A stretch of DNA of 30,054 nt from Candidatus Schekmanbacteria bacterium (GTDB lineage: Bacteria; Schekmanbacteria; GWA2-38-11; J061), in assembly GCA_003695725.1 (NCBI GenBank), contig RFHX01000040.1, positions 1 to 30,054 on the forward strand, written 5' to 3'. Below the pieces are notes generated by a model. The model saw only the letters and a program-made list of their open reading frames with translations. It was not told where the DNA came from and did no database searches. This document shows positions 2,393 to 28,313 of the stretch, one piece after another. How positions within the stretch are numbered: position 1 is the first letter of the stretch; every line of letters starts with the position of its first letter. Both the position numbers and the translations under genes were made by a program.

Positions 2393-4645
2393 TTAGGATT
2401 GATTTTCTTCATTGTCGTTTTTGTACTTTTTGCGGTTTTCTAAAAATTCTTCAACTTCTGTTTCATCGATAAGAACTTCTCGGGGTTTCACACCGTCTGC
2501 CGGGCCAATAAGGCCTTCTGCTTCCATCTTTTCAATAATTCTCGCCGCCCGATTATAACCAACTCGGAATTTTCTTTGGACCAATGATATAGAAACGCTT
2601 TTTGTTTTTGCAAGCCATCTTACAACTTCTTCGTATATCTCATCCTCTTCTTCCTCAATTTCACTTTCTTTTTCGCTCGGCAATGGAGTAAGTACAGTCA
2701 TATCGGGCTGTGATATACCCTGCGCCTTGATATGGTTTACTACAGCTTGAACTTCCGTATCTGAAACAAAAGCACCATGAATTCTAGTTAAGCGATTATA
2801 ACCCGGAGACATCAACAGCATATCACCTTTGCCCAATAATTGTTCTGCGCCGTTTTGGTCTAGAATTGTTCTTGAATCCACTTTCACAGATACTTGCAGG
2901 GCAATCCGCCATGAAAAGTTTGCTTTTATAACTCCTGTAATTACATCTACTGATGGTCTTTGAGTTGCCATTATTAAATGTATGCCTGCAGCTCTTGCCA
3001 TTTGGGAAAGCCGTTGAATTGAATCTTCTACTGTTTTTGACGCCGCAATCATTAAATCTGCCAGTTCATCTATGAAAATAACGATATAGGGTAAAATATT
3101 TTCTTCCTCATCCCTGTTTTCTTCTCTTAATAAGCGATTATATCTTGTTATGCTTCTAACTCCCCTATTTTTCATCAACTGATATCTTCTTTCCATTTCT
3201 CTTACTGCCCATTGAAGAGCGTAAGATGCTTCTTTTGGATTTGTTACAACCGGTGTTAAAAGATGAGGTATGTCTTGATAAACAGAAAGTTCAAGCATTT
3301 TCGGGTCAACCATTATCATTTTAACTTCTTTCGGTGTTGCTCTGTAGAGGAGGCTTAAAATCATCATATTTACAGCAACACTTTTACCTGACCCTGTTGC
3401 CCCTGCAATCAAAAGATGCGGCATCTTTGCTAAATCTTCTACCACAACATTGCCAAGTATGTCTTTCCCAAGGGCAATACATATTTTTGAAGGATGAGAC
3501 TGAAATTTATCAGATTGAAGGATCTCTTTAAGATAGACATTTTCTCTTTTATTGTTTGGAATCTCAATCCCCACGGTGCCTTTTCCGGGTATGGGCGCTA
3601 CAATTCTAACATTGATTGTTTTCATTGCCATTGCCAAGTCATTGGTGAGCGACACAATTTTATTCAACTTTATTCCCGGTGCAGGCTCAAATTCATACAT
3701 TGTAATAACAGGGCCAGTTCTCACTTCGCAAACCTTTCCTTCGATACCGAAATCCAAAAGTTTTTTTTCTAATATCTTTGAATTCAAAAGGATATCCTGT
3801 TTGGTGATTTTCGATTCACTTTTTTTCGGTTCTCTGAGAAGATTTAGAGAAGGGAGCATATATTCTTTGGCGAAATCAAAGCGCTGCTGTTCAGGTTCGG
3901 GAATTTCCTCTCCTTTGTCCATATCGATTTCGATTTGTTCTATATTTGGTCTGGGTTTCTTCTTTTCACTCTCAATTTTCGGTTTTATATTGGCGGAATG
4001 CTTCTTTTTTTGTTTCCAATTGATATAGAAGTCAAATGCCTTATCGATTTTTTCATAAGACCACCGTACCGAAACAGCAACTGCATTAAATGCTTTTCTC
4101 GTTATATCAATAATGGAAAATTCTGTTAGAAGGAAGAGAGAGAGAATAAAAAATGAAACAAGAATAATATAGGTGCCGGCAGGTCCGGCAAGTCTTTCTG
4201 AAGGTCCTGTCAAGTATAGACCAATTATGCCGCCAGGAGTTATACCCTTTGAAAATTCAATAAGCTCATTATGCCTGAAAGGAAATTGAAGCAGCGTGCA
4301 TAAACTTGTGAAAAAAAGTATGAAACCAATGGACTTTATAACAATGTGGTCTATCTTTTCCTTCCTTATGAGGTTTAAACTGAAAAGGAAAATAAAAAGA
4401 GGCATTAAAAGAGATGCATAACCGAAAACCTCAAACAAAAGTGCCGAACATTCTGCCCCTATTAAACCTGCAAGATTGTTGTATTTGCCTTCTGTTATGT
4501 TTTTGGAATCAGCAGAAAACCAAGTCGTATCATGGGGATTGTGCGATATAAGACTAAGAGAAAGAAGAAGTGCAAAAGCTAAAAGAAAGAAAGCACTTAT
4601 ATCTCGTTTTATACTTCTACCCTTTGAAATTTGTCCTTTGCTCAT
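2393..4645 (-). CDS. ftsK: DNA translocase FtsK/SpoIIIE
   Basis: N-terminal multi-TM region; motor domain with Walker A AGATGSGKS, IDELADLM, ATQRPSVDVITG, AEQLLGKGDML; gamma domain SISLVQRKFRVGYNRAARIIEKME. Confidence 0.95.
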   Translation of the reverse strand: MSKGQISKGRSIKRDISAFFLLAFALLLSLSLISHNPHDTTWFSADSKNITEGKYNNLAGLIGAECSALLFEVFGYASLLMPLFIFLFSLNLIRKEKIDHIVIKSIGFILFFTSLCTLLQFPFRHNELIEFSKGITPGGIIGLYLTGPSERLAGPAGTYIILVSFFILSLFLLTEFSIIDITRKAFNAVAVSVRWSYEKIDKAFDFYINWKQKKKHSANIKPKIESEKKKPRPNIEQIEIDMDKGEEIPEPEQQRFDFAKEYMLPSLNLLREPKKSESKITKQDILLNSKILEKKLLDFGIEGKVCEVRTGPVITMYEFEPAPGIKLNKIVSLTNDLAMAMKTINVRIVAPIPGKGTVGIEIPNNKRENVYLKEILQSDKFQSHPSKICIALGKDILGNVVVEDLAKMPHLLIAGATGSGKSVAVNMMILSLLYRATPKEVKMIMVDPKMLELSVYQDIPHLLTPVVTNPKEASYALQWAVREMERRYQLMKNRGVRSITRYNRLLREENRDEEENILPYIVIFIDELADLMIAASKTVEDSIQRLSQMARAAGIHLIMATQRPSVDVITGVIKANFSWRIALQVSVKVDSRTILDQNGAEQLLGKGDMLLMSPGYNRLTRIHGAFVSDTEVQAVVNHIKAQGISQPDMTVLTPLPSEKESEIEEEEDEIYEEVVRWLAKTKSVSISLVQRKFRVGYNRAARIIEKMEAEGLIGPADGVKPREVLIDETEVEEFLENRKKYKNDNEENQS

Positions 4646-4748
4646 TTTTCAGCATATTATGTAAAAGCACTATTGAAATTATATAGAAAAAACAACAGTT
4701 CTACAAGGATATAGTATCTCATCTATTCCAAAAAAGAAAAGTAATTTG

Positions 4749-4777
4749 TTGATTTTTTTCTGTATTTTTTTTAATAT
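4749..4777 (+). promoter_or_regulatory. candidate sigma70 promoter for the ftsH-folP-cdaA-cdaR-pdxJ-asd run
   Basis: TTGATT (4749-4754), 17 nt, TAATAT (4772-4777) in the divergent ftsK/ftsH gap. AT-rich context limits certainty. Confidence 0.35.
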
Positions 4778-4820
4778 GATTTTGCGTTACTAAGATAGAA
4801 TCAATAGAAATAAAAGGATT

Positions 4821-6650
4821 ATGGCTTCCGGTGAAAAAATGAATCAATTCTATAAGAATTTAATGTTGTGGATAATACTGATTGTATTCACAATAATTCT
4901 ATTTAATGCCTTCAATAACAATAAAAATATTGCAAATGAATTTGATTATTCAAAATTTCTTCAATTTGTAAATGAAGGCAAGGTTGTAAAGGTAACAATT
5001 CAGGGAAATGATATCGAAGGTGTTTTGACTGACAATTCAAAGTTCAAAACTTATGCACCTGATGACCCAAAATTGATTGAGTTGCTCACAAGCAAAAATG
5101 TGCAGATTAAAGCCCTTGCGCCTCCTTCATCTCCTTGGTATGTAGTTTTTCTTTCATCTTGGTTTCCTCTTCTTGTGTTGTTGGGAATATGGGTTTTCTT
5201 TATGCGTCAAATGCAAGTGGGAGGAAATAAGGCGCTTTCCTTTGGCAAAAGCAAGGCAAGGCTTCTCAATGAGAGTCAGAACAAAGTCACTTTTGATGAT
5301 GTAGCAGGCATAGATGAGGCAAAACTTGAAGTTGAAGAGATTATCGAGTTTTTGAAAGATCCCCATAAGTTTCAAAAACTGGGAGGCAAAATACCTAAAG
5401 GAGTTCTGCTTATAGGTCCTCCCGGCACAGGAAAAACTTTGCTTGCAAGAGCCATAGCAGGCGAAGCAGATGTACCATTCTTTTCAATATCTGGTTCTGA
5501 TTTCGTAGAGATGTTTGTAGGCGTTGGCGCATCGAGAGTCAGAGATCTCTTTGAGCAAGGAAAGAAAAATGCCCCTTGTATTATCTTTATCGACGAAATA
5601 GATGCAGTAGGACGTCATCGCGGTGCAGGACTTGGGGGTGGACACGATGAAAGAGAACAGACATTGAACCAGCTTTTGGTTGAGATGGACGGATTTGAAT
5701 CAAATGAAGGAGTGATATTGATTGCAGCAACAAACCGTCCTGATGTTTTGGATCCTGCTCTTTTGAGGCCCGGTCGTTTTGACCGGCAGGTGGTGGTTCC
5801 GAGGCCCGATGTAAAGGGGCGCGAAGGGATTCTGAAAGTTCATACCAAGAAAATTCCTTTGGCGGAAAATGTTTCCTTGGAGATCATTGCAAGAGGAACT
5901 CCCGGATTTTCAGGTGCAGATTTGGCAAATCTTGTCAATGAAGCCGCTCTTTATGCAGCAAGGATAAATAAAGATAAAGTTGAGATGTCTGATTTTGAAT
6001 ACGCAAAGGATAAAGTCTTAATGGGCGTTGAAAGAAAAAGTATGATCATAAGTGAGGAAGAAAAAAGAATTACTGCTTATCATGAAGCAGGTCATACATT
6101 AGTCGCAAAACTTTTGCCGGGTACTGACCCAATTCATAAGGTCAGTATAATCCCGAGAGGAATGGCATTGGGGGTTACACAACAGCTTCCAATGGATGAA
6201 AAACATACATATCCTCTTGAATATCTCAGGAATAATATCTGTGTTTTGCTTGGCGGAAGACTTGCTGAAGATATAATCTTGTCACAGCCAACAACAGGTG
6301 CCGGCAATGATATTGAAAGAGCCACTGAATTGGCAAGAAAAATGGTATGCGAATGGGGAATGAGCAAAGAGCTGGGGCCCCTGACATTTGGGAAAAAGGA
6401 AGAGGAAATTTTTCTTGGAAGAGAAATTTCTAAACATAGAGATTACAGCGAAGCAACAGCCGTTGCGATTGATAGGGAAGTTAAAAATATTGTAATGGAA
6501 TGTTATAATCTTGCTAAGTCTCTGCTTCTATCAAAAATTGATGTTCTCAATGCATTGGCAAAAGCTCTTCTTGAAAAAGAAGTGCTTAACGGCGAAGAGA
6601 TAGATAAAATTGTCAATAGCGAAGGTAAGGAAGCCATCACGGCTGCATAA
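4821..6650 (+). CDS. ftsH: ATP-dependent zinc metalloprotease FtsH (alternative start ATG 4839)
   Basis: Two N-terminal TM segments, Walker [26 protein letters not shown], Walker [35 protein letters not shown], zinc motif HEAGH. Confidence 0.97.
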
Positions 6651-6753
6651 AGAAATTCTTTAAAAAGAAAAAAAAGAAGTTAAATATTGTATTTTATTGA
6701 ATCCTTGAAGAAACATTTCACTTTTTTATCCTATTCTTTTTTGGAGTTTTTTG

Positions 6754-7599
6754 ATGAACAATTTCCGCATAGATTTTCCAAGAGGTATTTCTCTTTGTTT
6801 GGATAATTCACTTGCAGTAATGGGAGTCATTAATTGTACTCCTGATTCTTTTTATGACGGAGGAAAATACAGTTCTGCTGACGAAGCAGTTGAAAGAGCA
6901 TTAAGAATGGAAGAGGAGGGAGCAAAGATAATTGATGTAGGTGGTGAATCGACAAGGCCGGGCAGTAAACGAGTAGATGCAAAAGAGGAACTTTCAAGAG
7001 TTATTCCTGTTGTTAAAAAATTGCGGAAAAAAAGTAAAATTCTAATTTCTGTTGACACATATAAATCTGAAGTTGCAACTGCCGCTTTAGACAATGGAGC
7101 TGATTTAGTAAATGACATTAGTGGATTCGATTTTGATGCAAAAATGCCTGAAACTATTGCTCATTTTGGATGCCCTGTAATTATAGGGCATATTAAAGGC
7201 AAACCGGAAACTATGCAAAAAGGAGTAAAATATAGGAATGTTGTCAATGAAGTAATGAAAAAACTTGAAGATAAAACAGATATGGCTGTAAAATCTGGTA
7301 TAAGGAAAGATTTAATTCTTATCGATCCGGGAATAGGATTTGGAAAGAAGGTTGAAGACAATTTGAGAATAATCAAGTATCTCAATCAAATAAAGAAGCT
7401 TGAAAGGCCTATAGTCATAGGTGCTTCGAGAAAAAGCTTTATTGGAAAGATACTGGATGTAGAACCGGAAGAGAGATTGGAAGGGAGTCTTGCTGTTGCT
7501 TCTATTGCCGCATTGAATGGAGCAGACATTATAAGAGCCCATGATGTAAAGGAAACTGTTAGAGCTCTTAAAGTTGTGGAAAGCATATTATCTGCATAG
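6754..7599 (+). CDS. folP: Dihydropteroate synthase
   Basis: VMGVINCTPDSFYDGG, IIDVGGESTRPG, ISVDT, DPGIGFGK, GASRKSFIG, IIRAHDV; GGAG SD 7 nt before ATG 6754. Confidence 0.95.
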   Translation: MNNFRIDFPRGISLCLDNSLAVMGVINCTPDSFYDGGKYSSADEAVERALRMEEEGAKIIDVGGESTRPGSKRVDAKEELSRVIPVVKKLRKKSKILISVDTYKSEVATAALDNGADLVNDISGFDFDAKMPETIAHFGCPVIIGHIKGKPETMQKGVKYRNVVNEVMKKLEDKTDMAVKSGIRKDLILIDPGIGFGKKVEDNLRIIKYLNQIKKLERPIVIGASRKSFIGKILDVEPEERLEGSLAVASIAALNGADIIRAHDVKETVRALKVVESILSA

Positions 7600-13093: not shown

Positions 13094-13121
13094 AAAAAAA
13101 AAGCAGGGCTTGACCCTGCTT
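13094..13121 (-). terminator. Intrinsic terminator after ihfB, immediately before der
   Basis: Minus strand AAGCAGGG-TCAAG-CCCTGCTT followed by a T7 tract: perfect 8-bp stem, 5-nt loop. Confidence 0.8.
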
Positions 13122-13153
13122 ATTACTATTCATTTTTTCAGCTATGAAATAGA

Positions 13154-13450
13154 TTATTCCTCTTCTTTTCCTGATGAATCCACAAGCTTTTTTAATTCTT
13201 TTCCTGCCCTGAAAAAAGGCACTTTTTTTGGCGGCACGCTTACCTTTTCTCCTGTTAAAGGATTTCTGCCGTCTCTTGAATTTCTATGTCTAACTGTAAA
13301 CGAGCCGAATCCTCTTATTTCTACCTTATCCCCTGCAACAAGAGCTCTTTTAATGTTTTCAAAAAAACAATTGACTACAGCTTCTGTCTGTTTTTTATTT
13401 AAGAATGATATTTTATCAGCTACTGCTTCTATAAGTTCTGCTTTTGTCAT
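13154..13450 (-). CDS. ihfB: Integration host factor beta / HU family DNA-binding protein
   Basis: MTKAELIE, VEIRGFGSF, GRNPLTGE, KVPFFRAGKEL; located after rpsA as ihfB commonly is; AGGAGG SD. Confidence 0.82.
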   Translation of the reverse strand: MTKAELIEAVADKISFLNKKQTEAVVNCFFENIKRALVAGDKVEIRGFGSFTVRHRNSRDGRNPLTGEKVSVPPKKVPFFRAGKELKKLVDSSGKEEE

Positions 13451-13466
13451 AACTTCCTCCTGAAAT

Positions 13467-15197
13467 TTATTTATCTGATTTCAAGTCGGAATCGTCTATT
13501 ACTGTTTTTAATTTTGGTTCGAACTTTTCTTGGTCTTCAAGATAATCCGTTATTTCTTTTTTCTCTCTTTCTTCTAAAAGTTCTCTAATGCTGAGTCCTA
13601 TTTTTTTCTCTTCGCTGTCAATCCTGATAATCTTTGCTTCCACTTCTTCACCAAGAGTAACAGCATCTTCCGGCTTATCTACATTTTTAGTGCTCAACTC
13701 TGATATATGAATAAGCCCCTCGACACCGTCTTCTATCTCGATGAAAGCTCCAAAGTTTGCAAACTTGATGATTTTCCCTTTTATTATATCTCCAACCTTA
13801 TATTTTTCTACTGCTTCTTCCCATGGGTCAGGCTCAAGGTGCTTCAAACTGAGAGAAACCCTTTCATTTTCTCTATCAATTTTTAGAACTTTTGCTTTGA
13901 TTGTTTCACCCTTTTTCACAATTTCAGAAGGATGTTTGATTTTTTTGCTCCAGCTCAAATCTGAAATATGAATCATACCATCGATACCTTCTTCCAAGCC
14001 TATAAAAATTCCGAAGTCAGTAATACTTTTTATTTCTCCTTCAACAATCGAACCGGGAGGATACTTTTCTTCTATAATATCCCAAGGATTGGGTTCGCAT
14101 TGTTTTAGCCCAAGTGAAATCTTCTTTGATTCTTTGTCGATACTTAAAACCACAGCTTCAACATTATCACCAACAGCCAATATTTTGGACGGATGTCTGA
14201 TCTTTTTTGTCCATGACATTTCTGATATGTGAATCAAACCTTCAATTCCCTTTTCAAGCTCTATGAAAGCACCATAATCAGTCAAACTAACAACTCGACC
14301 GCGGACTTTTTCACCAACAGGATATTTTTCTTCTACATTATTCCATGGATTTTCTGTTATCTGTTTCAGCCCAAGAGAAACTTTTTCAGTTTCTGGTTCT
14401 ATTTTTAGAATTTTCACTTTTATTTCATCACCAATCTTGAACATTTCAGAAGGATGGTTTATTCTCCCCCAAGTCATATCCGTAATATGTAGAAGACCAT
14501 CTATTCCGCCTAAATCTATAAAAACTCCATATTCAGTAATGTTTTTGACAATACCATCAACAATTTCGCCTTCCTTGATTTTCTCCATTGTTTTGACTTT
14601 TTTCTTTTCTCTTTCTTCTTCAAGGATTTTTCTTCTTGATATGACAATGTTTCCCCGTTTATGGTTTACATTGATGATTTTAAAATCAAAAGTTTTACCA
14701 ACCAATTCATCCATATTTTTAACCGGTCTGAGATCAATTTGGGAGCCCGGTAAAAATGCTTTTATGCCTATATCAACAGTCATTCCGCCTTTTATTCGTG
14801 AAATAATTTTTCCCTGAATGATTTCATCCCTTTCATATGCTTTTAAAAGCTCTTCCCATACTTTAACCTTGAGAGCTTTTTCTCTCGAAAGTACAATCTG
14901 GCCGTTTTGGTCTTCAATCATATCGAGATATACTTCAATTTCATCACCTACCTTTATATCAGCCATTTCTCCTGAGTGACTATAAAATTCAGAAATAGGC
15001 ACATAGCCTTCTGATTTATATCCAACATCGAGCATTACCATATCATCGGAAATTGATATAATCTTACCTTTGATGACATTCCCTTCTTTGAAATTTTGCA
15101 TAGTCTCGCTGTAAAGCTTCTCCATCATTTCACGGCTTAATTCCTGATTCTCATCGAGAGAATCCAAATTTAGTTTTTCTTCATTCGTTGCATCCAT
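13467..15197 (-). CDS. rpsA: 30S ribosomal protein S1 (six S1 domains)
   Basis: DVGYKSEG, AFLPGSQIDLRP, GIDGLLHITDM, GIEGLIHISEM, GIDGMIHISDL, GVEGLIHISEL; 576 aa. Confidence 0.97.
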   Translation of the reverse strand: MDATNEEKLNLDSLDENQELSREMMEKLYSETMQNFKEGNVIKGKIISISDDMVMLDVGYKSEGYVPISEFYSHSGEMADIKVGDEIEVYLDMIEDQNGQIVLSREKALKVKVWEELLKAYERDEIIQGKIISRIKGGMTVDIGIKAFLPGSQIDLRPVKNMDELVGKTFDFKIINVNHKRGNIVISRRKILEEEREKKKVKTMEKIKEGEIVDGIVKNITEYGVFIDLGGIDGLLHITDMTWGRINHPSEMFKIGDEIKVKILKIEPETEKVSLGLKQITENPWNNVEEKYPVGEKVRGRVVSLTDYGAFIELEKGIEGLIHISEMSWTKKIRHPSKILAVGDNVEAVVLSIDKESKKISLGLKQCEPNPWDIIEEKYPPGSIVEGEIKSITDFGIFIGLEEGIDGMIHISDLSWSKKIKHPSEIVKKGETIKAKVLKIDRENERVSLSLKHLEPDPWEEAVEKYKVGDIIKGKIIKFANFGAFIEIEDGVEGLIHISELSTKNVDKPEDAVTLGEEVEAKIIRIDSEEKKIGLSIRELLEEREKKEITDYLEDQEKFEPKLKTVIDDSDLKSDK

Positions 15198-20107: not shown

Positions 20108-21922
20108 ATGCCTGGTGCTCATGGAAGAGGAAGTGTTTTTTTGGAGGAAGGCGATTTAGGTAAGGCATATGATTCTAAAATTATAAAACGGCTTTGGCTT
20201 TTCATCTCTCCTCATAAGTGGCTTATTATATTTTCAATTTCGCTTCTGCCTCTCGTTGCAGGATTACAGTTGTTGCAGCCCTATTTAATCAAAACTGCAA
20301 TCGATGAAAACATTTCACGGGGGAAGCTTGAAGGTCTTAACCTGATTGCCGCAATTTTCTTCTGCGCATTGATAGGCCAATATTTAGTAACCTTTCTTCA
20401 ACAGTATTTACTTCAATTATCAGGACAAAGGATTATTCTCGACTTGAGGACTAAGCTCTTTTCTCATATGCAGCGTCTTCCGCTATCTTTTTTTGATAAA
20501 AATCCTGTTGGCAGAGTGGTAACTCGTCTTACTTCTGATGTAGAAGCCTTAAATGAAATGTTTACTTCTGGTTTAGCTTCATTTATAGGCGATGCCTTTA
20601 TGCTTTGCGGAATAATGATTGCTATGCTTCTTCTGAATGTCAAACTTGCATTGGTGACTTTATTGGTAATTCCTTTTCTTGCTGTAATAGCGGCTTTTTT
20701 CAGAATAAAAGGAAGGAAGGCATATAGAAATATCCGCACTAAAACGGCATTGGTTAATTCTTATTTGGAAGAGAATCTTTCCGGAATTGAAATAGTTAGG
20801 TTATTTAGAAGAGAAAAGAGAAATTTTAATGAATTTCAAAACTATAACAGAGAGCTTAGACAAGCCAATATTTCTTCTGTTTTTTATGATTCCTTTCTAT
20901 ATGCATCTGTTGAATTGATAGGGTCAATTGGTGTTGCAATTATAATTTGGTATGGAGGCGGTCAGATCCTCCAAAAAACTCTTACATTCGGTGTATTGGT
21001 TGCTTTCCTTGAATATCTTCAGAAGTTTTTTGTGCCTATCCGAGATTTATCTGCCAAGTATGCTATTATGCAGCAGGCAATGGCTGCTTCGGAAAGGATT
21101 TTGAAGCTTTTTGATGAAGAAGAAGAGGATTTGTCAAAAGGCGTAAGTAAGGTTGAATCACTCAAAGGGAAAATAGAATTTAAAAATATTTCCTTTTCCT
21201 ATAATAAAGGAGAGCGGGTTATTAAAAACTTTTCGCTTACGATTCAGCCTGGAGAAAAAGTAGCTATAGTAGGTGCCACTGGAGCCGGGAAATCAACACT
21301 TTTGAAATTGCTCTTGCGTTTCTATGAGCCTGATGAAGGGACTATTCTAATCGATGATGTAGATATCAGTCATTTGAGCAGACAGTGGATTAGAAAAAAT
21401 ATTGGAGTAGTTCCTCAAGATATTTTCCTTTTTGCGGGAAATATTGAGGAAAATATACGACTGTCGAATAATTCTGTTACAGAAAAAGAGCTGATTGAGA
21501 ACATTAGAAAGGCAAGAGCAGACAGAGTGATAGAAAAATTAAAATTAGGACTGAAAGAATCAGTTTCTGAAAGAGGGAATAATTTTTCAAGCGGGGAAAA
21601 ACAGCTTCTATCCTTTGCCCGTGTTTTGACATTTAATCCTCATATTCTTATCCTCGACGAAGCTACTTCAAATATTGATGCAGAGACAGAACATCTTATT
21701 CAGGAGGGGTTGAAAGAATTATTGAAAGGAAGAACATCTATTGTGATTGCACATCGGCTTTCAACAGTAAGGTATGCTGACAGGATTGCTGTAATGCATC
21801 ATGGAGAACTCAGAGAATTGGGAAGTCATGAAGAGCTGTTGAAAAGAAAGGGAATTTATTACAGGCTTTATAGGTATCAGGGTGGAATTGAAGAAATGCG
21901 TAATCAGAGAGTCAACCTATAA
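20108..21922 (+). CDS. Heterodimeric ABC exporter, subunit 2 (MdlB/YheH-like)
   Basis: Starts right after the partner's stop (TAAATG) with an internal GGAGG SD; Walker A GATGAGKS, degenerate signature FSSGE, Walker B ILILDE, H-loop IAHR. Confidence 0.92.
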   Translation: MPGAHGRGSVFLEEGDLGKAYDSKIIKRLWLFISPHKWLIIFSISLLPLVAGLQLLQPYLIKTAIDENISRGKLEGLNLIAAIFFCALIGQYLVTFLQQYLLQLSGQRIILDLRTKLFSHMQRLPLSFFDKNPVGRVVTRLTSDVEALNEMFTSGLASFIGDAFMLCGIMIAMLLLNVKLALVTLLVIPFLAVIAAFFRIKGRKAYRNIRTKTALVNSYLEENLSGIEIVRLFRREKRNFNEFQNYNRELRQANISSVFYDSFLYASVELIGSIGVAIIIWYGGGQILQKTLTFGVLVAFLEYLQKFFVPIRDLSAKYAIMQQAMAASERILKLFDEEEEDLSKGVSKVESLKGKIEFKNISFSYNKGERVIKNFSLTIQPGEKVAIVGATGAGKSTLLKLLLRFYEPDEGTILIDDVDISHLSRQWIRKNIGVVPQDIFLFAGNIEENIRLSNNSVTEKELIENIRKARADRVIEKLKLGLKESVSERGNNFSSGEKQLLSFARVLTFNPHILILDEATSNIDAETEHLIQEGLKELLKGRTSIVIAHRLSTVRYADRIAVMHHGELRELGSHEELLKRKGIYYRLYRYQGGIEEMRNQRVNL

Positions 21923-22079
21923 AATAATAGTAAAAATTTTACATTCTTTACAAAAATTTTACTGTTTATATATTGTATCTTTTATCTAAATATTATACTG
22001 AACATTTTCAAATCAATGTTCTATTTAGAACATTTTTTTTATATCGACTGAAAGTCAATTAAATGAGGGAGGTAAATTG

Positions 22080-23522
22080 ATGAATATTCTTTTAGGAATT
22101 CTCATAGTGCTTGTACTTTTGGTAGGAGGAGCTTATGCTCTCATTAAGTATAAAAACAGGCCTCCAAAACCGGATCTTTATGAAGTCTTTTTGAAACAGG
22201 ATACTACTCCTGTAGGTAAAGTGGGAATTTTTGTCACAGGGCTCATTATGCCTGAAAACCATAGCCATGCTTTCTTTCACAATATTATTAAAAAGATAAA
22301 CAAAGTAGTAATTCCCTGGCCTATCAATATTCTCACAATGAGGGATAAAGGGATTGCCCTTCTTGACCCGAACAATACTCACGCCCGAGAGGAATTTACT
22401 CCAACTCATTTAGAAGATGCTTTTGGCAATGACTGTGATAGGGACGGGGTGCCCTATATCGAGTTGTATAAGCAGGGAAAGGTAAAATGGATGCCTCCCT
22501 CATCCCGCATTTATCTTGACCATGGATATTTTTTATATACAGGACGCCTTTCAGGAGAGCCTTCTCTCTGTGGAAAGGTTGCTAATAAATCAAGACTCTA
22601 TTATTACGGACATGGAATTAAACAACGAAAACTTCCTCACTGGCAGCAGACGAAAGAGATGCTTGAAAAGGGATTTGAGATTATAAAATCCAAATATAAT
22701 GATGTCGTTTGCGGCTGGGAGACAGGGCTTATATATTGGAATATGAGAAAAAAACTCTTTGAAATTCTTGACCAAGGCATCGATACTTTGATTGCTTCAT
22801 CACCAATGGGGATATATTCACATTTTGAGGATTTCAACTCGAGCTTTCGGCATATTTTTGAATATGTTGAAGAATGGGAAAAGGAACATCCGGGTAAAAA
22901 GATAAAGATAATTATGGCTCCTCAAATGGGAGATTTTCAACCATTGCGTCAGGCATTTCTCGAAATGCTGAAAGACCGTCTTGATACTTTGCCAGAAGGA
23001 AGCAGTGTGATGGTTGCTGTAACCTGTCATGGAATGCCATGGGATGCTTTCCCTTGGGAAGCATGGCTTAAGCAGGCACCACCTTATAGAGATAAGCTTT
23101 ATGAGGAAGTCAAGGAGTTGGTTGGAAAATACAATTTCAGTAAAACAAGGGTTGTAATTTGTCAGGATGAATTTGCTGACCCCATTTGGGACCCAAATGA
23201 AAAATATTTAAGCACTAACAGGGCATATTGGAATGCTATCAATGATGGTTTTGATTACTGTATAGGGCTGCCGATAGAGTTTTTTGCTGAAAATTCAGAT
23301 ACCCTTATGCATCACGCAATGAAGAATTATCAGGGCTTTGATGATTATGATATTGAAGAACCAATAGATTATCCTGACTGGTCAGTCCCTTATACGAGGC
23401 AGTTTAAACAGAATAATACGACTGTAATTTATAATGGTGTCCCTGTTGGAAAATATCAAAAATATGTAGTTGAAGCATTTGTCCAATCTCTTGAATCTGT
23501 CCTGTCAAAAAGAAAGAATTAG
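22080..23522 (+). CDS. Membrane-anchored ferrochelatase-like (class II chelatase fold) protein of unknown function
   Basis: GGAGG SD at 22068-22072; N-terminal TM helix; segments matching HemH/CpfC by eye (VGIFVTGLIMP, PMGIYS, VTCHGMP, LPIEFFAENSDTL). About 480 aa, much longer than typical HemH. Confidence 0.6.
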   Translation: MNILLGILIVLVLLVGGAYALIKYKNRPPKPDLYEVFLKQDTTPVGKVGIFVTGLIMPENHSHAFFHNIIKKINKVVIPWPINILTMRDKGIALLDPNNTHAREEFTPTHLEDAFGNDCDRDGVPYIELYKQGKVKWMPPSSRIYLDHGYFLYTGRLSGEPSLCGKVANKSRLYYYGHGIKQRKLPHWQQTKEMLEKGFEIIKSKYNDVVCGWETGLIYWNMRKKLFEILDQGIDTLIASSPMGIYSHFEDFNSSFRHIFEYVEEWEKEHPGKKIKIIMAPQMGDFQPLRQAFLEMLKDRLDTLPEGSSVMVAVTCHGMPWDAFPWEAWLKQAPPYRDKLYEEVKELVGKYNFSKTRVVICQDEFADPIWDPNEKYLSTNRAYWNAINDGFDYCIGLPIEFFAENSDTLMHHAMKNYQGFDDYDIEEPIDYPDWSVPYTRQFKQNNTTVIYNGVPVGKYQKYVVEAFVQSLESVLSKRKN

Positions 23523-23553
23523 CACTCTTTCATATAAGAAACTTAGGTTAAAT

Positions 23554-23592
23554 AAATCCCTCTTCATAAAATTGGAAGAGGGATTTTTTTTT
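23554..23592 (+). terminator. Intrinsic terminator after the chelatase-like gene
   Basis: AAATCCCTCTTC, 9-nt loop, GAAGAGGGATTT, then a T run to 23592. Confidence 0.85.
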
Positions 23593-23662
23593 GTTGATAT
23601 TCCCTTTCTTTAGTGAAAGGATAAAGCCTAATCTGAGGGAAGAAGAAATAAAAAGATGTAAT

Positions 23663-23678
23663 TATGACTTATGTCATA
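23663..23678. promoter_or_regulatory. Palindromic operator TATGAC-N4-GTCATA upstream of hcp (CRP/FNR/HcpR-type geometry)
   Basis: Perfect 6-bp inverted repeat with 4-nt spacer, about 70 nt upstream of the hcp start. Confidence 0.55.
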
Positions 23679-23746
23679 CAACAATCTTTCAATTTGAATT
23701 AACTAATAACTATCAGAAAAAATAATTTTTTATGGGAGGATTTGAA

Positions 23747-25033
23747 ATGTTTTGTAATCAATGTGAACAAACAGCTAAAGGTACAGGTTGTACTGTGGCG
23801 GGAGTCTGTGGCAAAAATGCCGATATTCAGTCCTTACAAGAAATTCTTCTCTATGGATTAAAAGGAATTTCTGCATATGCGTGGGCAGCAAGAAAAGTTG
23901 GGAAAGTTGATCCCGAAGTAGATGCTTTTATGCATGAGGCGCTTTACACGACGGTGACAAATGTCAATTTTGATCTTGAAGACCATATCAATATGGCATT
24001 GAAATGCGGACAGATGAATCTCAAGGTAATGGAAATGTTGGACAAAGCTTATGTAGAGAGGTATGGAGCGCCCACACCTGTTGAAGTGGAAACGGGGACT
24101 AAAGAAGGCTATGGGATTCTCGTGACAGGACATGATTTGCCAGACCTTGAAGAGCTTTTGAAACAGACTGAGGGGAAAGGTATCAATGTGTACACCCATT
24201 CGGAAATGCTTCCAGCTCATGGATATCCTGAACTTCGTAAATATGAACATCTTGTAGGAAATTATGGCGGTGCATGGCAAGACCAAGTAAAGGAATTTGC
24301 CGAATTTCCGGGAACGATACTCGTAACAACAAATTGTGTGCAGATTCCTAAAGAAAGTTACAGTGACAGATTATTTACGACAGGTGTAGCTTCCGTCAAC
24401 AGAGAAAATCACATTGAAGGCCACGATTTTTCGAAACTTATTGAAAAAACACTTCAGACAAAGCCTTTGCCTGAAGCTCCGGGAAAGAAGATAATGACCG
24501 GTTTCCATCACAGTGCAATCTTGGGGATTGCTGACAAAGTGATTGATGCTGTCAAATCTGGTAAGGTAAAACATTTCTTCCTTATTGGCGGTTGTGATGG
24601 TGCAAAGACAGGACGAAATTATTACACAGAAATTGCTGAAAGAATACCGCAAGACTGTATCATATTGACTCTTGCTTGCGGAAAATACCGCTTTAACAAA
24701 AAGGATTTTGGTACTATAGGAGATATACCAAGGTTGATTGACATAGGACAATGCAATAATGCATATAGCGCCATTCAAGTGGCAGTTGCATTAGCAGATG
24801 CATTCAAGTGTGGAGTGAATGATTTGCCTCTCTCTTTGATTTTGTCATGGTTTGAACAGAAAGCTGTTGCAATTCTCCTTACACTTCTTTCTCTTGATAT
24901 CAAAGGGATGAGATTGGGACCTACACCGCCTGCTTTTGTTAGCGAGAATGTTTTTAAGGTATTACAAGATAAATTTGACCTAAAATTGATAACCACACCT
25001 GAAGAGGATTTGAAGGATATTTTGGCTCAGTAA
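23747..25033 (+). CDS. hcp: Hybrid cluster protein (hydroxylamine/NO reductase), short class III type, 428 aa
   Basis: MFCNQCEQTAKGTGCTVAGVCGK (C-x2-C-x8-C-x5-C); hybrid-cluster ligand motifs GHD, HSEM, TNC, GGCDG, ACG, GQCN, WFEQKA. The in-frame upstream 'MGG' is the GGAGG SD, so the start is ATG 23747. Confidence 0.95.
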   Translation: MFCNQCEQTAKGTGCTVAGVCGKNADIQSLQEILLYGLKGISAYAWAARKVGKVDPEVDAFMHEALYTTVTNVNFDLEDHINMALKCGQMNLKVMEMLDKAYVERYGAPTPVEVETGTKEGYGILVTGHDLPDLEELLKQTEGKGINVYTHSEMLPAHGYPELRKYEHLVGNYGGAWQDQVKEFAEFPGTILVTTNCVQIPKESYSDRLFTTGVASVNRENHIEGHDFSKLIEKTLQTKPLPEAPGKKIMTGFHHSAILGIADKVIDAVKSGKVKHFFLIGGCDGAKTGRNYYTEIAERIPQDCIILTLACGKYRFNKKDFGTIGDIPRLIDIGQCNNAYSAIQVAVALADAFKCGVNDLPLSLILSWFEQKAVAILLTLLSLDIKGMRLGPTPPAFVSENVFKVLQDKFDLKLITTPEEDLKDILAQ

Positions 25034-27297: not shown

Positions 27298-27789
27298 ATG
27301 AAACTGCCTTCACCCCCGCCAACTCCAGTTGAAGAAAGATGGAAAAGGTTATGTCAAGCATTAGCAGCAGAAAGGATAAATCTTTATTTTGATTTGAAAA
27401 AAATACTTGGCGATGAAAAGGGAGAAGAAGTTTTTAAGAAACTTTATGACGAAGGAATAAAAAGAATAAGAAAAAATTTCCCGGGAGGAAAATTACCAGT
27501 TGGGGAGTTGATGAGAAGAGAGTTGACAAGCTTTCCTATGTTGGGATTTGAATTGACTATTGATGAAGTTGAGGAAGATGGTGAAACAACATATTACGAG
27601 CATCTTACAAAATGCCCCTTTCTCGATATGGCACGCAAGATGAATACTCCTGAGATACCCTGCGATTTTTTATGCAACTATGATGTTGAGCTTGCAATAA
27701 AAGATAAGAGAGGAAGATGGGAAATAATATCACGAATGGGCGACGGCGCAGAGGAATGTGTTTTCAAAATCAGGGAATGGAAGGAATAA
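27298..27789 (+). CDS. Cys-rich ATC-hydrolase-like / V4R-related small protein, paralog 1
   Basis: GGGAGG SD; YEHLTKCPF...PCDFLCNYD...GRWE...MGDGAEECVFKI, resembling the L-2-amino-thiazoline-4-carboxylic acid hydrolase family by eye. Confidence 0.65.
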   Translation: MKLPSPPPTPVEERWKRLCQALAAERINLYFDLKKILGDEKGEEVFKKLYDEGIKRIRKNFPGGKLPVGELMRRELTSFPMLGFELTIDEVEEDGETTYYEHLTKCPFLDMARKMNTPEIPCDFLCNYDVELAIKDKRGRWEIISRMGDGAEECVFKIREWKE

Positions 27790-27833: not shown

Positions 27834-28313
27834 ATGGAAAAGATAATTGGTAAAGATTTCCCATGGGAACAACAAAGAGAAATGCTCATTGAAAGATGTT
27901 CTTTGAAACTTCCGCTTCTTTATAAGAATCTTGTAGCTGCTTATGGTGAAGAAAAGGCAATGGAAGTTTATGACAGGGTCTATGAAGCAAATTTTAAGAG
28001 TCGATTGGGGAAACTTAAAGGTATGGATTTAGGAGATATAATGAGACTGGAGGTTCAGATGTTTCCCGCAATGGGATGGAAAATCTGGATTGAGGAGAAA
28101 GAAGAGGATGATGGTCCTGCGTGGTATGAACATTTAGAATATTGCCCTCATTGGGAAGCGACAAAAAAACATAAGCTTCCGGAGCCCTGTAACATTGTTT
28201 GCGATATGGATTGCAAATACGGAGAAAAATATAAAATAGGGAAATGGGAAAGACTGAAACATATGCCTTCAGGCGACAGTGAATGTTGTTTTAAGATAAA
28301 GAAAGCTGAATAG
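27834..28313 (+). CDS. Cys-rich ATC-hydrolase-like / V4R-related small protein, paralog 2
   Basis: YEHLEYCPHW...PCNIVCDMDC...GKWE...MPSGDSECCFKI; aligns end to end with paralog 1. Confidence 0.65.
   Translation: MEKIIGKDFPWEQQREMLIERCSLKLPLLYKNLVAAYGEEKAMEVYDRVYEANFKSRLGKLKGMDLGDIMRLEVQMFPAMGWKIWIEEKEEDDGPAWYEHLEYCPHWEATKKHKLPEPCNIVCDMDCKYGEKYKIGKWERLKHMPSGDSECCFKIKKAE

Follow-up and report, generated by a model that had tools for sequence, protein, structure and literature searches.

The question raised by a stretch of 30,054 nucleotides from Candidatus Schekmanbacteria bacterium (GenBank assembly GCA_003695725.1, contig RFHX01000040.1, positions 1 to 30,054 of the forward strand), referred to here as the window, is whether a long, membrane-anchored protein that is only distantly related to the ferrochelatases could be the enzyme with which this organism makes its haem. 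The protein, of 480 residues, is encoded at 22080..23522 on the + strand. The fold, together with a conserved histidine and a pair of acidic residues, is most simply explained by a tetrapyrrole metal chelatase. We tentatively suggest, with a probability of roughly 0.4, that the protein is a cytoplasm-facing chelatase that inserts iron and supplies haem by a non-canonical route.

A model was generated with AlphaFold2 from 24 homologues (pLDDT 89, pTM 0.88). It contains the two Rossmann-like domains of the class II chelatase fold, with the ferrochelatases as its nearest structural neighbours. Foldseek matched it to ferrochelatases with a probability of 1.0. With VIA-align the best match was yeast ferrochelatase (Z 25.6, root mean square deviation (rmsd) of 3.4 Å over 316 residues), followed by human ferrochelatase (FECH, Z ~25), CpfC from Listeria and Bacillus (23–24), SirB (18.9) and CbiX/CbiK (~15). 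These matches bear out the two-domain ferrochelatase fold that had been proposed in a first-pass annotation made from the sequence alone. In sequence the relationship is much less apparent. The score to the Pfam ferrochelatase family (PF00762) is 25.5 bits, below the cut-off of 27, which some relatives just pass, and that to TIGR00109 is 23.9 against a cut-off of 124.6. Sequence searches of the PDB, either with the single protein or with a family profile, found no ferrochelatase, and the relationship was detected solely by the Pfam and TIGR hidden Markov models, by hhalign and by comparison of the folds. The protein does not fit the smaller chelatases, being outside the 110–300 residues of CbiK (PF06180) and CbiX (PF01903), neither of which is listed for it by Pfam even at E values up to 10.

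The landmarks expected of HemH and CpfC are all present: GIFVTG (residues 49–54), LPHW (185–188), YSHFE (246–250), HGMP (317–320) and FFAENSDTL (401–409), and across the 24 homologues most of them vary little or not at all. When the family profile was aligned with hhalign to nine canonical HemH sequences from unrelated genomes (probability 87%, E 3.9e-6), LPHW paired with SPL, TCHGMP with TAHGLP and PIEFFAENSDTL with PVSFVSDHIETL, much as the first reading by eye had suggested. The HGMP motif (23028..23039, + strand) thus carries His317, which on this alignment is the counterpart of the metal-binding histidine (H183 in B. subtilis, H263 in human ferrochelatase). H317, G318 and P320 are invariant. 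In the last pair, PIEFFAE404-N-S-D407-TL lies opposite PVSFVSDHIETL of HemH, such that E404-N405-S406-D407 (23289..23300, + strand) is equivalent to the D-H-x-E of HemH, with both acids retained but their side-chain lengths swapped, and with an asparagine in place of the histidine. The glutamate that is invariant in HemH (E264 in B. subtilis, E343 in human) is not present, its position being taken by D407. While E404 and D407 are invariant, N405 is found in at least 90% of the homologues. Given the pairing of PIEFFAENSDTL with PVSFVSDHIETL, the change from glutamate to aspartate, already suspected in the first-pass annotation, is real. Human ferrochelatase with the E343D mutation reportedly keeps partial activity (Sellers et al. 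2001), and structures of E343D ferrochelatase are among the structural matches of the model.

The added length derives from residues 1–44, made up of a transmembrane helix (residues 2–25) and a linker, and from an insertion after the first β-strand. The helix and the basic KYKNR that follows it (residues 23–27) are encoded at 22083..22160 on the + strand. This is a single hydrophobic segment, predicted to lie with its N-terminus out and its C-terminus in, which begins at residue 3 without a basic n-region; the conserved KYKNR(R) comes directly after it. Lysines and arginines are more numerous on the C-terminal flank (mean 3.7) than on the N-terminal flank (mean 0.64) in 111 of 118 full-length family members. 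This positive-inside charge pattern would place the catalytic domain on the cytoplasmic side, the site of haem synthesis, and fits both the helix with basic residues on its C-terminal side and the N-out topology that had been predicted at the outset. The family-specific insertion (approximately residues 59–183; 22254..22628, + strand) lies between β1, with the GIFVTG sequence, and LPHW. From β1 to the equivalent of SPL there are 131 residues, against ~57 in HemH, which agrees with the insertion claimed earlier. Its size is ~75–125 residues; the alignment to HemH starts at residue 184. It is confidently modelled (pLDDT of 76–96 in ten-residue blocks) and highly conserved, its invariant residues including N68, K72, PWP79–81, D89, D96, D113, D122, W137, D147, K166 and Y175. 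A C-terminal extension, which had also been claimed, is not there, because the structural alignments extend to residue 477–480 and reach the last residues of the B. subtilis and Listeria ferrochelatases.

Among 5.8 billion proteins there were 364 relatives, of which the best 120 were mostly full length (~470–500 residues) with 56–88% identity to the protein of the window. A search of 1.84 billion representatives gave just 137 clusters, with no ordinary HemH evident among them. In 185,579 species genomes there were 56 loci, nearly all in metagenome-assembled genomes (MAGs) labelled Thermodesulfobacteriota or delta proteobacterium, several of which have 3–4 family loci. More than 100 relatives are full length, and the transmembrane helix with KYKNR, the insertion, YSHFE(E/D)F, HGMPW and PIEF.AENSDT are all present. 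The GTDB phylum of the window is represented by five genomes with one copy of the gene in each. In a maximum-likelihood tree with a midpoint root these five form one clade nested amongst the paralogues of the other lineage, which suggests that one paralogue may have been acquired horizontally or that the others may have been lost. Relatives already carry the label ‘protoheme ferro-lyase’ from automatic pipelines. Literature searches returned no publication on the long family or on expansions of genes like those of the ferredoxin-dependent bilin reductases (FDBRs) in such bacteria; the paper on pre-PcyA, where pairs of V4R proteins are found with the pre-PcyA FDBR clusters, does not mention ferrochelatase (PMC10151467). 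This is, then, a small, lineage-restricted family from uncultured anaerobes, and a new, architecturally distinct variant in a known superfamily rather than a new kind of protein. The distinct chelatase-fold family of the first-pass annotation stands in this sense, being tightly conserved and, by the Pfam and TIGR scores and the PDB profile search, well apart from HemH.

Three routes to haem are known, each with its hallmark enzymes. The genome from which the window comes (2.77 Mb, 97.8% complete; G000 below, with its four relatives from the same phylum as G001 to G004) has no canonical ferrochelatase gene, hemH or cpfC, no AhbAB marker and no CbiK, and the same is true of the four relatives. 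The long gene is therefore the only ferrochelatase-like gene of the window genome, and an extra chelatase beside a normal one, as the first-pass annotation had implied, is not what is found. That annotation would have given up the separate family for a protein that was both the sole ferrochelatase of its genome and grouped with ordinary HemH; the former proved to be so amongst ferrochelatase-like genes, the latter did not. A small, separate CbiX and ALAD are present in the window genome. Two of its proteins resemble HemE but, at 284 and 229 bits, fall short of the equivalog cut-off of 303; true HemE of the large phylum described below reaches 380–460. One of its three URO-D matches (L082; contig C206, 2335–3987) is a 550-residue fusion of an MtaA/CmuA-type methyltransferase, which has the URO-D fold, with a corrinoid-binding domain, and is not a haem gene. 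No other recognisable haem genes were seen around the HemE-like genes, as judged by the sizes and N-termini of the open reading frames (ORFs) only. HemY and HemN equivalogs were not found in the window genome; the HemY model (TIGR00562) gave weak partial matches only, and no search was aimed at ChdC or CgoX. Weak matches to the HemY and HemN models were seen as adjacent pairs of a CrtI/amine-oxidase-like FAD protein (~400–480 residues) and a radical-SAM protein (~450–500 residues), located in G000 on contigs C93 (387–4104) and C53 (1320–2656) and also on G001 contig C35, G002 contig C17 and G003 contig C18. In G003, which is 99% complete and has three CcsA genes, there was no match to the URO-D family, and HemE was not found in G003, G004 or nine carriers of the long family from the large phylum. 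In the window genome the CXXCH motif occurs at least three times in each of 27 ORFs, with a maximum of 25 in a single protein, and there is a gene for cytochrome c assembly of the CcsA type, so that the organism must obtain haem. Counting the same motif in the neighbouring loci of relatives gave one multihaem ORF.

The nine carriers come from 301 genomes sampled from the large phylum to which locus L023 belongs, and each has 2–5 copies of the long gene. Canonical HemH was found in none of them, as compared to 109 of the 292 non-carriers. HemE, which is present in 108–109 genomes, largely those with HemH, is likewise missing from all nine. The AhbAB marker is present in 184 genomes, amongst which are two of the nine carriers and 182 of the non-carriers. 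Counted from the lists, either HemH or AhbAB occurs in ~285 of the 292 non-carriers but in only two of the nine carriers, and neither is found in the other seven carriers or in any of the five genomes from the phylum of the window. The carriers are kin, and for this reason the fourteen genomes should perhaps be counted as two or three independent cases.

The ORFs of the 56 related loci and the window were clustered and representatives of the clusters were compared with Pfam. No neighbour is common to all of them. Of the 56 related loci and the window taken together, 12 include an FDBR-like gene (PF05996), which for the most part is adjacent or close to that for the chelatase-like protein. Other recurring neighbours are secreted flavodoxin-like, small lipoprotein-like, FMN_red and PNPOx-like proteins, alpha/beta hydrolases, transport sets of MMPL, DUF1302 and DUF1329, geranylgeranyl-reductase-like FAD enzymes and TetR/PadR regulators. 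One locus (L018, 5251–11910) is a tandem repeat, in which a small lipoprotein-like ORF (~107 residues), a long ferrochelatase-like gene, a small ORF and a secreted flavodoxin-like gene (~232 residues) are followed by a second long ferrochelatase-like gene, small ORF and flavodoxin-like gene. The link to the FDBR-like genes extends to whole genomes. There are 14 matches in the window genome, 17, 8, 3 and 3 in its phylum relatives and 14–22 in four other carriers, while amongst 14 control genomes they were found in Synechococcus only. In the sample of 301 genomes the FDBR-like genes occur in exactly the same nine as the long family; a gammaproteobacterial MAG has the long family without them. 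The best FDBR-like protein of the window genome scores 113 bits to PebA, which is under every equivalog cut-off. On contig C187 of this genome (L083) four FDBR-like genes are located at 4111–4824, 6167–6958, 13105–13947 and 14111–14821, with matches in 10 further places, and in this 2.8-Mb non-photosynthetic genome some lie beside geranylgeranyl-reductase-like FAD enzymes. Around L023 itself (genome G041, contig C3, 165118–171391) three chelatase-fold genes are found in a row, a 250-residue ORF, a 479-residue long form and a 373-residue ORF with a full-length match to PF00762 of just 57 bits. Divergent forms of the class II chelatase fold have arisen in the carrier lineages.

Another tetrapyrrole or metal, a dechelatase and a chaperone had been named as possible roles in the first-pass annotation, and one of these gains from the link to the FDBR-like genes. 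The main rival to iron insertion is that the protein is an accessory chelatase or dechelatase. It would remove or exchange the metal in metalloporphyrins, whether exogenous haem, those of chlorophyll type or others, as part of an anaerobic salvage or catabolism of tetrapyrroles rather than for de novo haem synthesis. It would act there with the FDBR-like proteins and with flavodoxin-like and FMN-reductase proteins, alpha/beta hydrolases and transporters of hydrophobic compounds. The FDBR-like genes in 12 of the loci, the recurrence of redox, hydrolase and transport genes in these neighbourhoods, the perfect co-occurrence in nine genomes, the many matches in the window's phylum and in four other carriers, and the presence of 2–5 paralogues per genome, some in tandemly duplicated modules as in L018, all speak for such a role. 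We nevertheless consider it the less likely of the two, since the gene in the window, as throughout its phylum, is single-copy with no FDBR-like, flavodoxin or hydrolase neighbour, and the retained histidine and acid pair resemble a working chelatase site. Salvage would also not explain where these cytochrome-rich organisms get their haem, one gammaproteobacterial carrier has no FDBR-like gene at all, and the co-occurrence may stem from shared ancestry only.

Replacement of the catalytic glutamate and the adjoining histidine could instead mean that the protein has lost its activity and serves as a membrane-anchored chaperone, binding porphyrin or haem and passing it to exporters or to cytochrome c maturation. 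Haem-binding proteins with the CbiK fold are among the structural matches (P. gingivalis FetB and the periplasmic CbiK of D. vulgaris), and in three genomes of the family-level clade a pair of ABC exporter genes lies directly upstream. We regard this as improbable. His317, D407 and E404 are invariant along with dozens of other residues, as is typical of an active enzyme, and a change from glutamate to aspartate is a conservative one. The ABC pair, moreover, is of a generic SmdAB/MsbA-like type rather than CydDC, has a promoter-like gap between it and the gene, and does not occur at the G003 and G004 loci. It seems highly improbable that the protein is exported, with the N-terminal helix as a signal anchor or signal peptide of a periplasmic chelatase-fold protein. 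Signal-peptide or lipoprotein-like N-termini are found on some neighbours elsewhere (clusters c4, c26 and c43), but here the hydrophobic segment has no positive n-region in front of it, the basic cluster comes directly after it, with the same charge bias in all but seven of the 118 members, and the alignment of the 24 homologues has no conserved AxA cleavage motif.

We therefore return to a chelatase that inserts iron. That the gene is single-copy and the only one of its type, in a cytochrome-rich organism where no other terminal haem enzyme was found, makes iron insertion the most likely role. The protein would be a class II (ferrochelatase-type) tetrapyrrole metal chelatase, tethered to the inner membrane by its single N-terminal helix with the catalytic domain in the cytoplasm. 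It would provide haem for the many c-type cytochromes in place of the missing HemH or CpfC, and the tether may hold it where hydrophobic porphyrins occur and where haem is passed on. Since HemE is doubtful in the window genome and was not found in most carriers, the route would not be the textbook one, and the porphyrin probably comes from a route other than the three. Several observations weigh against this proposal. The upstream steps are unclear, with the best HemE-like protein (284 bits) under the cut-off and far under true HemE, and no HemY or HemN equivalog found in the window genome. With no URO-D in G003 and no HemE in the nine carriers, the classical supply of proto- or coproporphyrin is missing in most carriers. 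The multiple paralogues in other carriers (2–5) would be unusual for a housekeeping enzyme, and the physical and phyletic link with FDBR-like genes points to a role beyond plain haem synthesis. Finally, as the carriers probably represent two or three lineages, the counts overstate their independence.

The two main possibilities, haem synthesis and salvage, may be combined. The long family and the expanded FDBR-like proteins might belong to an undescribed, oxygen-independent route by which anaerobes mostly lacking HemE, HemH and AhbAB make or salvage haem or another metallotetrapyrrole, with this protein catalysing the insertion or exchange of the metal. This is speculative and we think it rather unlikely. 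No terminal haem hallmark was seen in the cytochrome-rich anaerobe of the window or its relatives, nor in most of a second, taxonomically unrelated set of uncultured genomes of sulfate-reducer type (two of nine with AhbAB), and both sets have a divergent ferrochelatase-fold protein and markedly expanded bilin-reductase-fold genes. If the protein does make haem, the known range of ferrochelatase sequences and architectures would be widened and pathway predictions for these lineages would need to be corrected. If the partnership with the FDBR-like proteins is real, it would mean that an as yet unknown chemistry of tetrapyrroles goes on without oxygen in sediments and hot springs.

The gene itself appears to be a transcription unit of its own. 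The reading frame proposed for it is real. It starts at the ATG at 22080 or, alternatively, at the TTG in the same frame at 22077, and has a Shine–Dalgarno sequence, GAGGGAGG, read directly at 22066..22073 (+ strand), 6 nucleotides before the ATG. Between the gene and that of the ABC transporter upstream lies an AT-rich gap of 155 bp. Within the gap there is a sigma-70-like promoter candidate, TTTACA-16-TATATT (21947..21974, + strand; 10 of 12 matches), which is weak evidence because such sites are no more numerous in the region than in shuffled sequences. Downstream a strong intrinsic terminator (23554..23592, + strand) starts 31 bases after the stop codon. It has a GC-containing stem of 12 bp (AAATCCCTCTTC/GAAGAGGGATTT), a loop of 9 nucleotides, on account of which a consensus scan overlooked it, and a T-run; the hairpin has a folding energy of −19.9 kcal/mol (z −2.86 relative to shuffles). 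The terminator noted in the first-pass annotation is thereby confirmed, and with the promoter-like gap upstream the gene looks monocistronic. In the 5′ leader a heptamer occurs three times (GAACATT, AATGTTC, GAACATT; window 22000–22034), with a T-run after the last copy. The heptamers could be an operator; a structured leader or attenuator was sought around them and the fold was no better than that of shuffles (z −0.66).

In the window's family-level clade the gene order is ABC, ABC, chelatase and, in part, Hcp. The ABC pair was considered as the haem exporter CydDC, which is unsupported; the best matches are of the MsbA/SmdAB type and all are under their cut-offs. In both G000 and G001 the chelatase-like gene is followed by that for a hybrid-cluster protein, which in G002 comes after one intervening gene and is not found there in G003 or G004, where the downstream gene encodes a CrtI/carotenoid-isomerase-like FAD enzyme and a thiolase-like protein, respectively. 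The hybrid-cluster protein of the window (23732–25033) is short, at 433 residues, and matches the equivalog model for hydroxylamine reductase with 670 bits. No tetrapyrrole gene was detected among the other ORFs of the window scanned against Pfam, in keeping with the earlier statement that no hem genes are nearby. They include the housekeeping genes for MiaB-like, FtsK, FtsH, FolP, CdaA, PdxJ, Asd, AroA and TyrA proteins, the SmdAB/MsbA-like ABC exporter pair, a DUF5666 surface protein and an HD-GYP/GAF protein. Two tandem ATC_hydrolase (PF14196) paralogues are found at 27298–27789 and 27834–28313. For the region 21900–23700, 90% of the sampled words were present in one hot-spring metagenome run, possibly the source sample; no RNA run was listed.

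Compared to the HemH/PpfC enzymes, human FECH and yeast Hem15 (PF00762), the protein has the same two-domain fold (Z ~25, rmsd 3.2–3.4 Å, ~316 residues), the metal-binding histidine, an SPL-like motif (LPH) and an acidic helix motif ending in T-L, and is likewise associated with the membrane. It differs from them in having only ~13–16% identity and a Pfam score under the gathering threshold, in the replacement of the catalytic glutamate with aspartate, of the motif histidine with asparagine and of the motif aspartate with glutamate, in the ~75–125-residue insertion after β1, and in not being linked to hemE, hemY or hemN. Its true N-terminal transmembrane helix contrasts with the peripheral membrane lip of FECH and the C-terminal CAB helix of the plant and cyanobacterial enzymes. 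CpfC from B. subtilis and L. monocytogenes also shares the fold (Z 23–24 over ~294 residues) and the catalytic histidine. CpfC is, however, soluble and of ~310 residues, and at the distal position after β1 its tyrosine would appear, by eye, to be replaced with Leu55. SirB, CbiX, CbiK and the haem-binding FetB and CbiK-P have the fold of the same superfamily, to which the match (Z 15–19) is clearly weaker than to the ferrochelatases, and in the window genome the small CbiX is separate from the long ferrochelatase-like gene.

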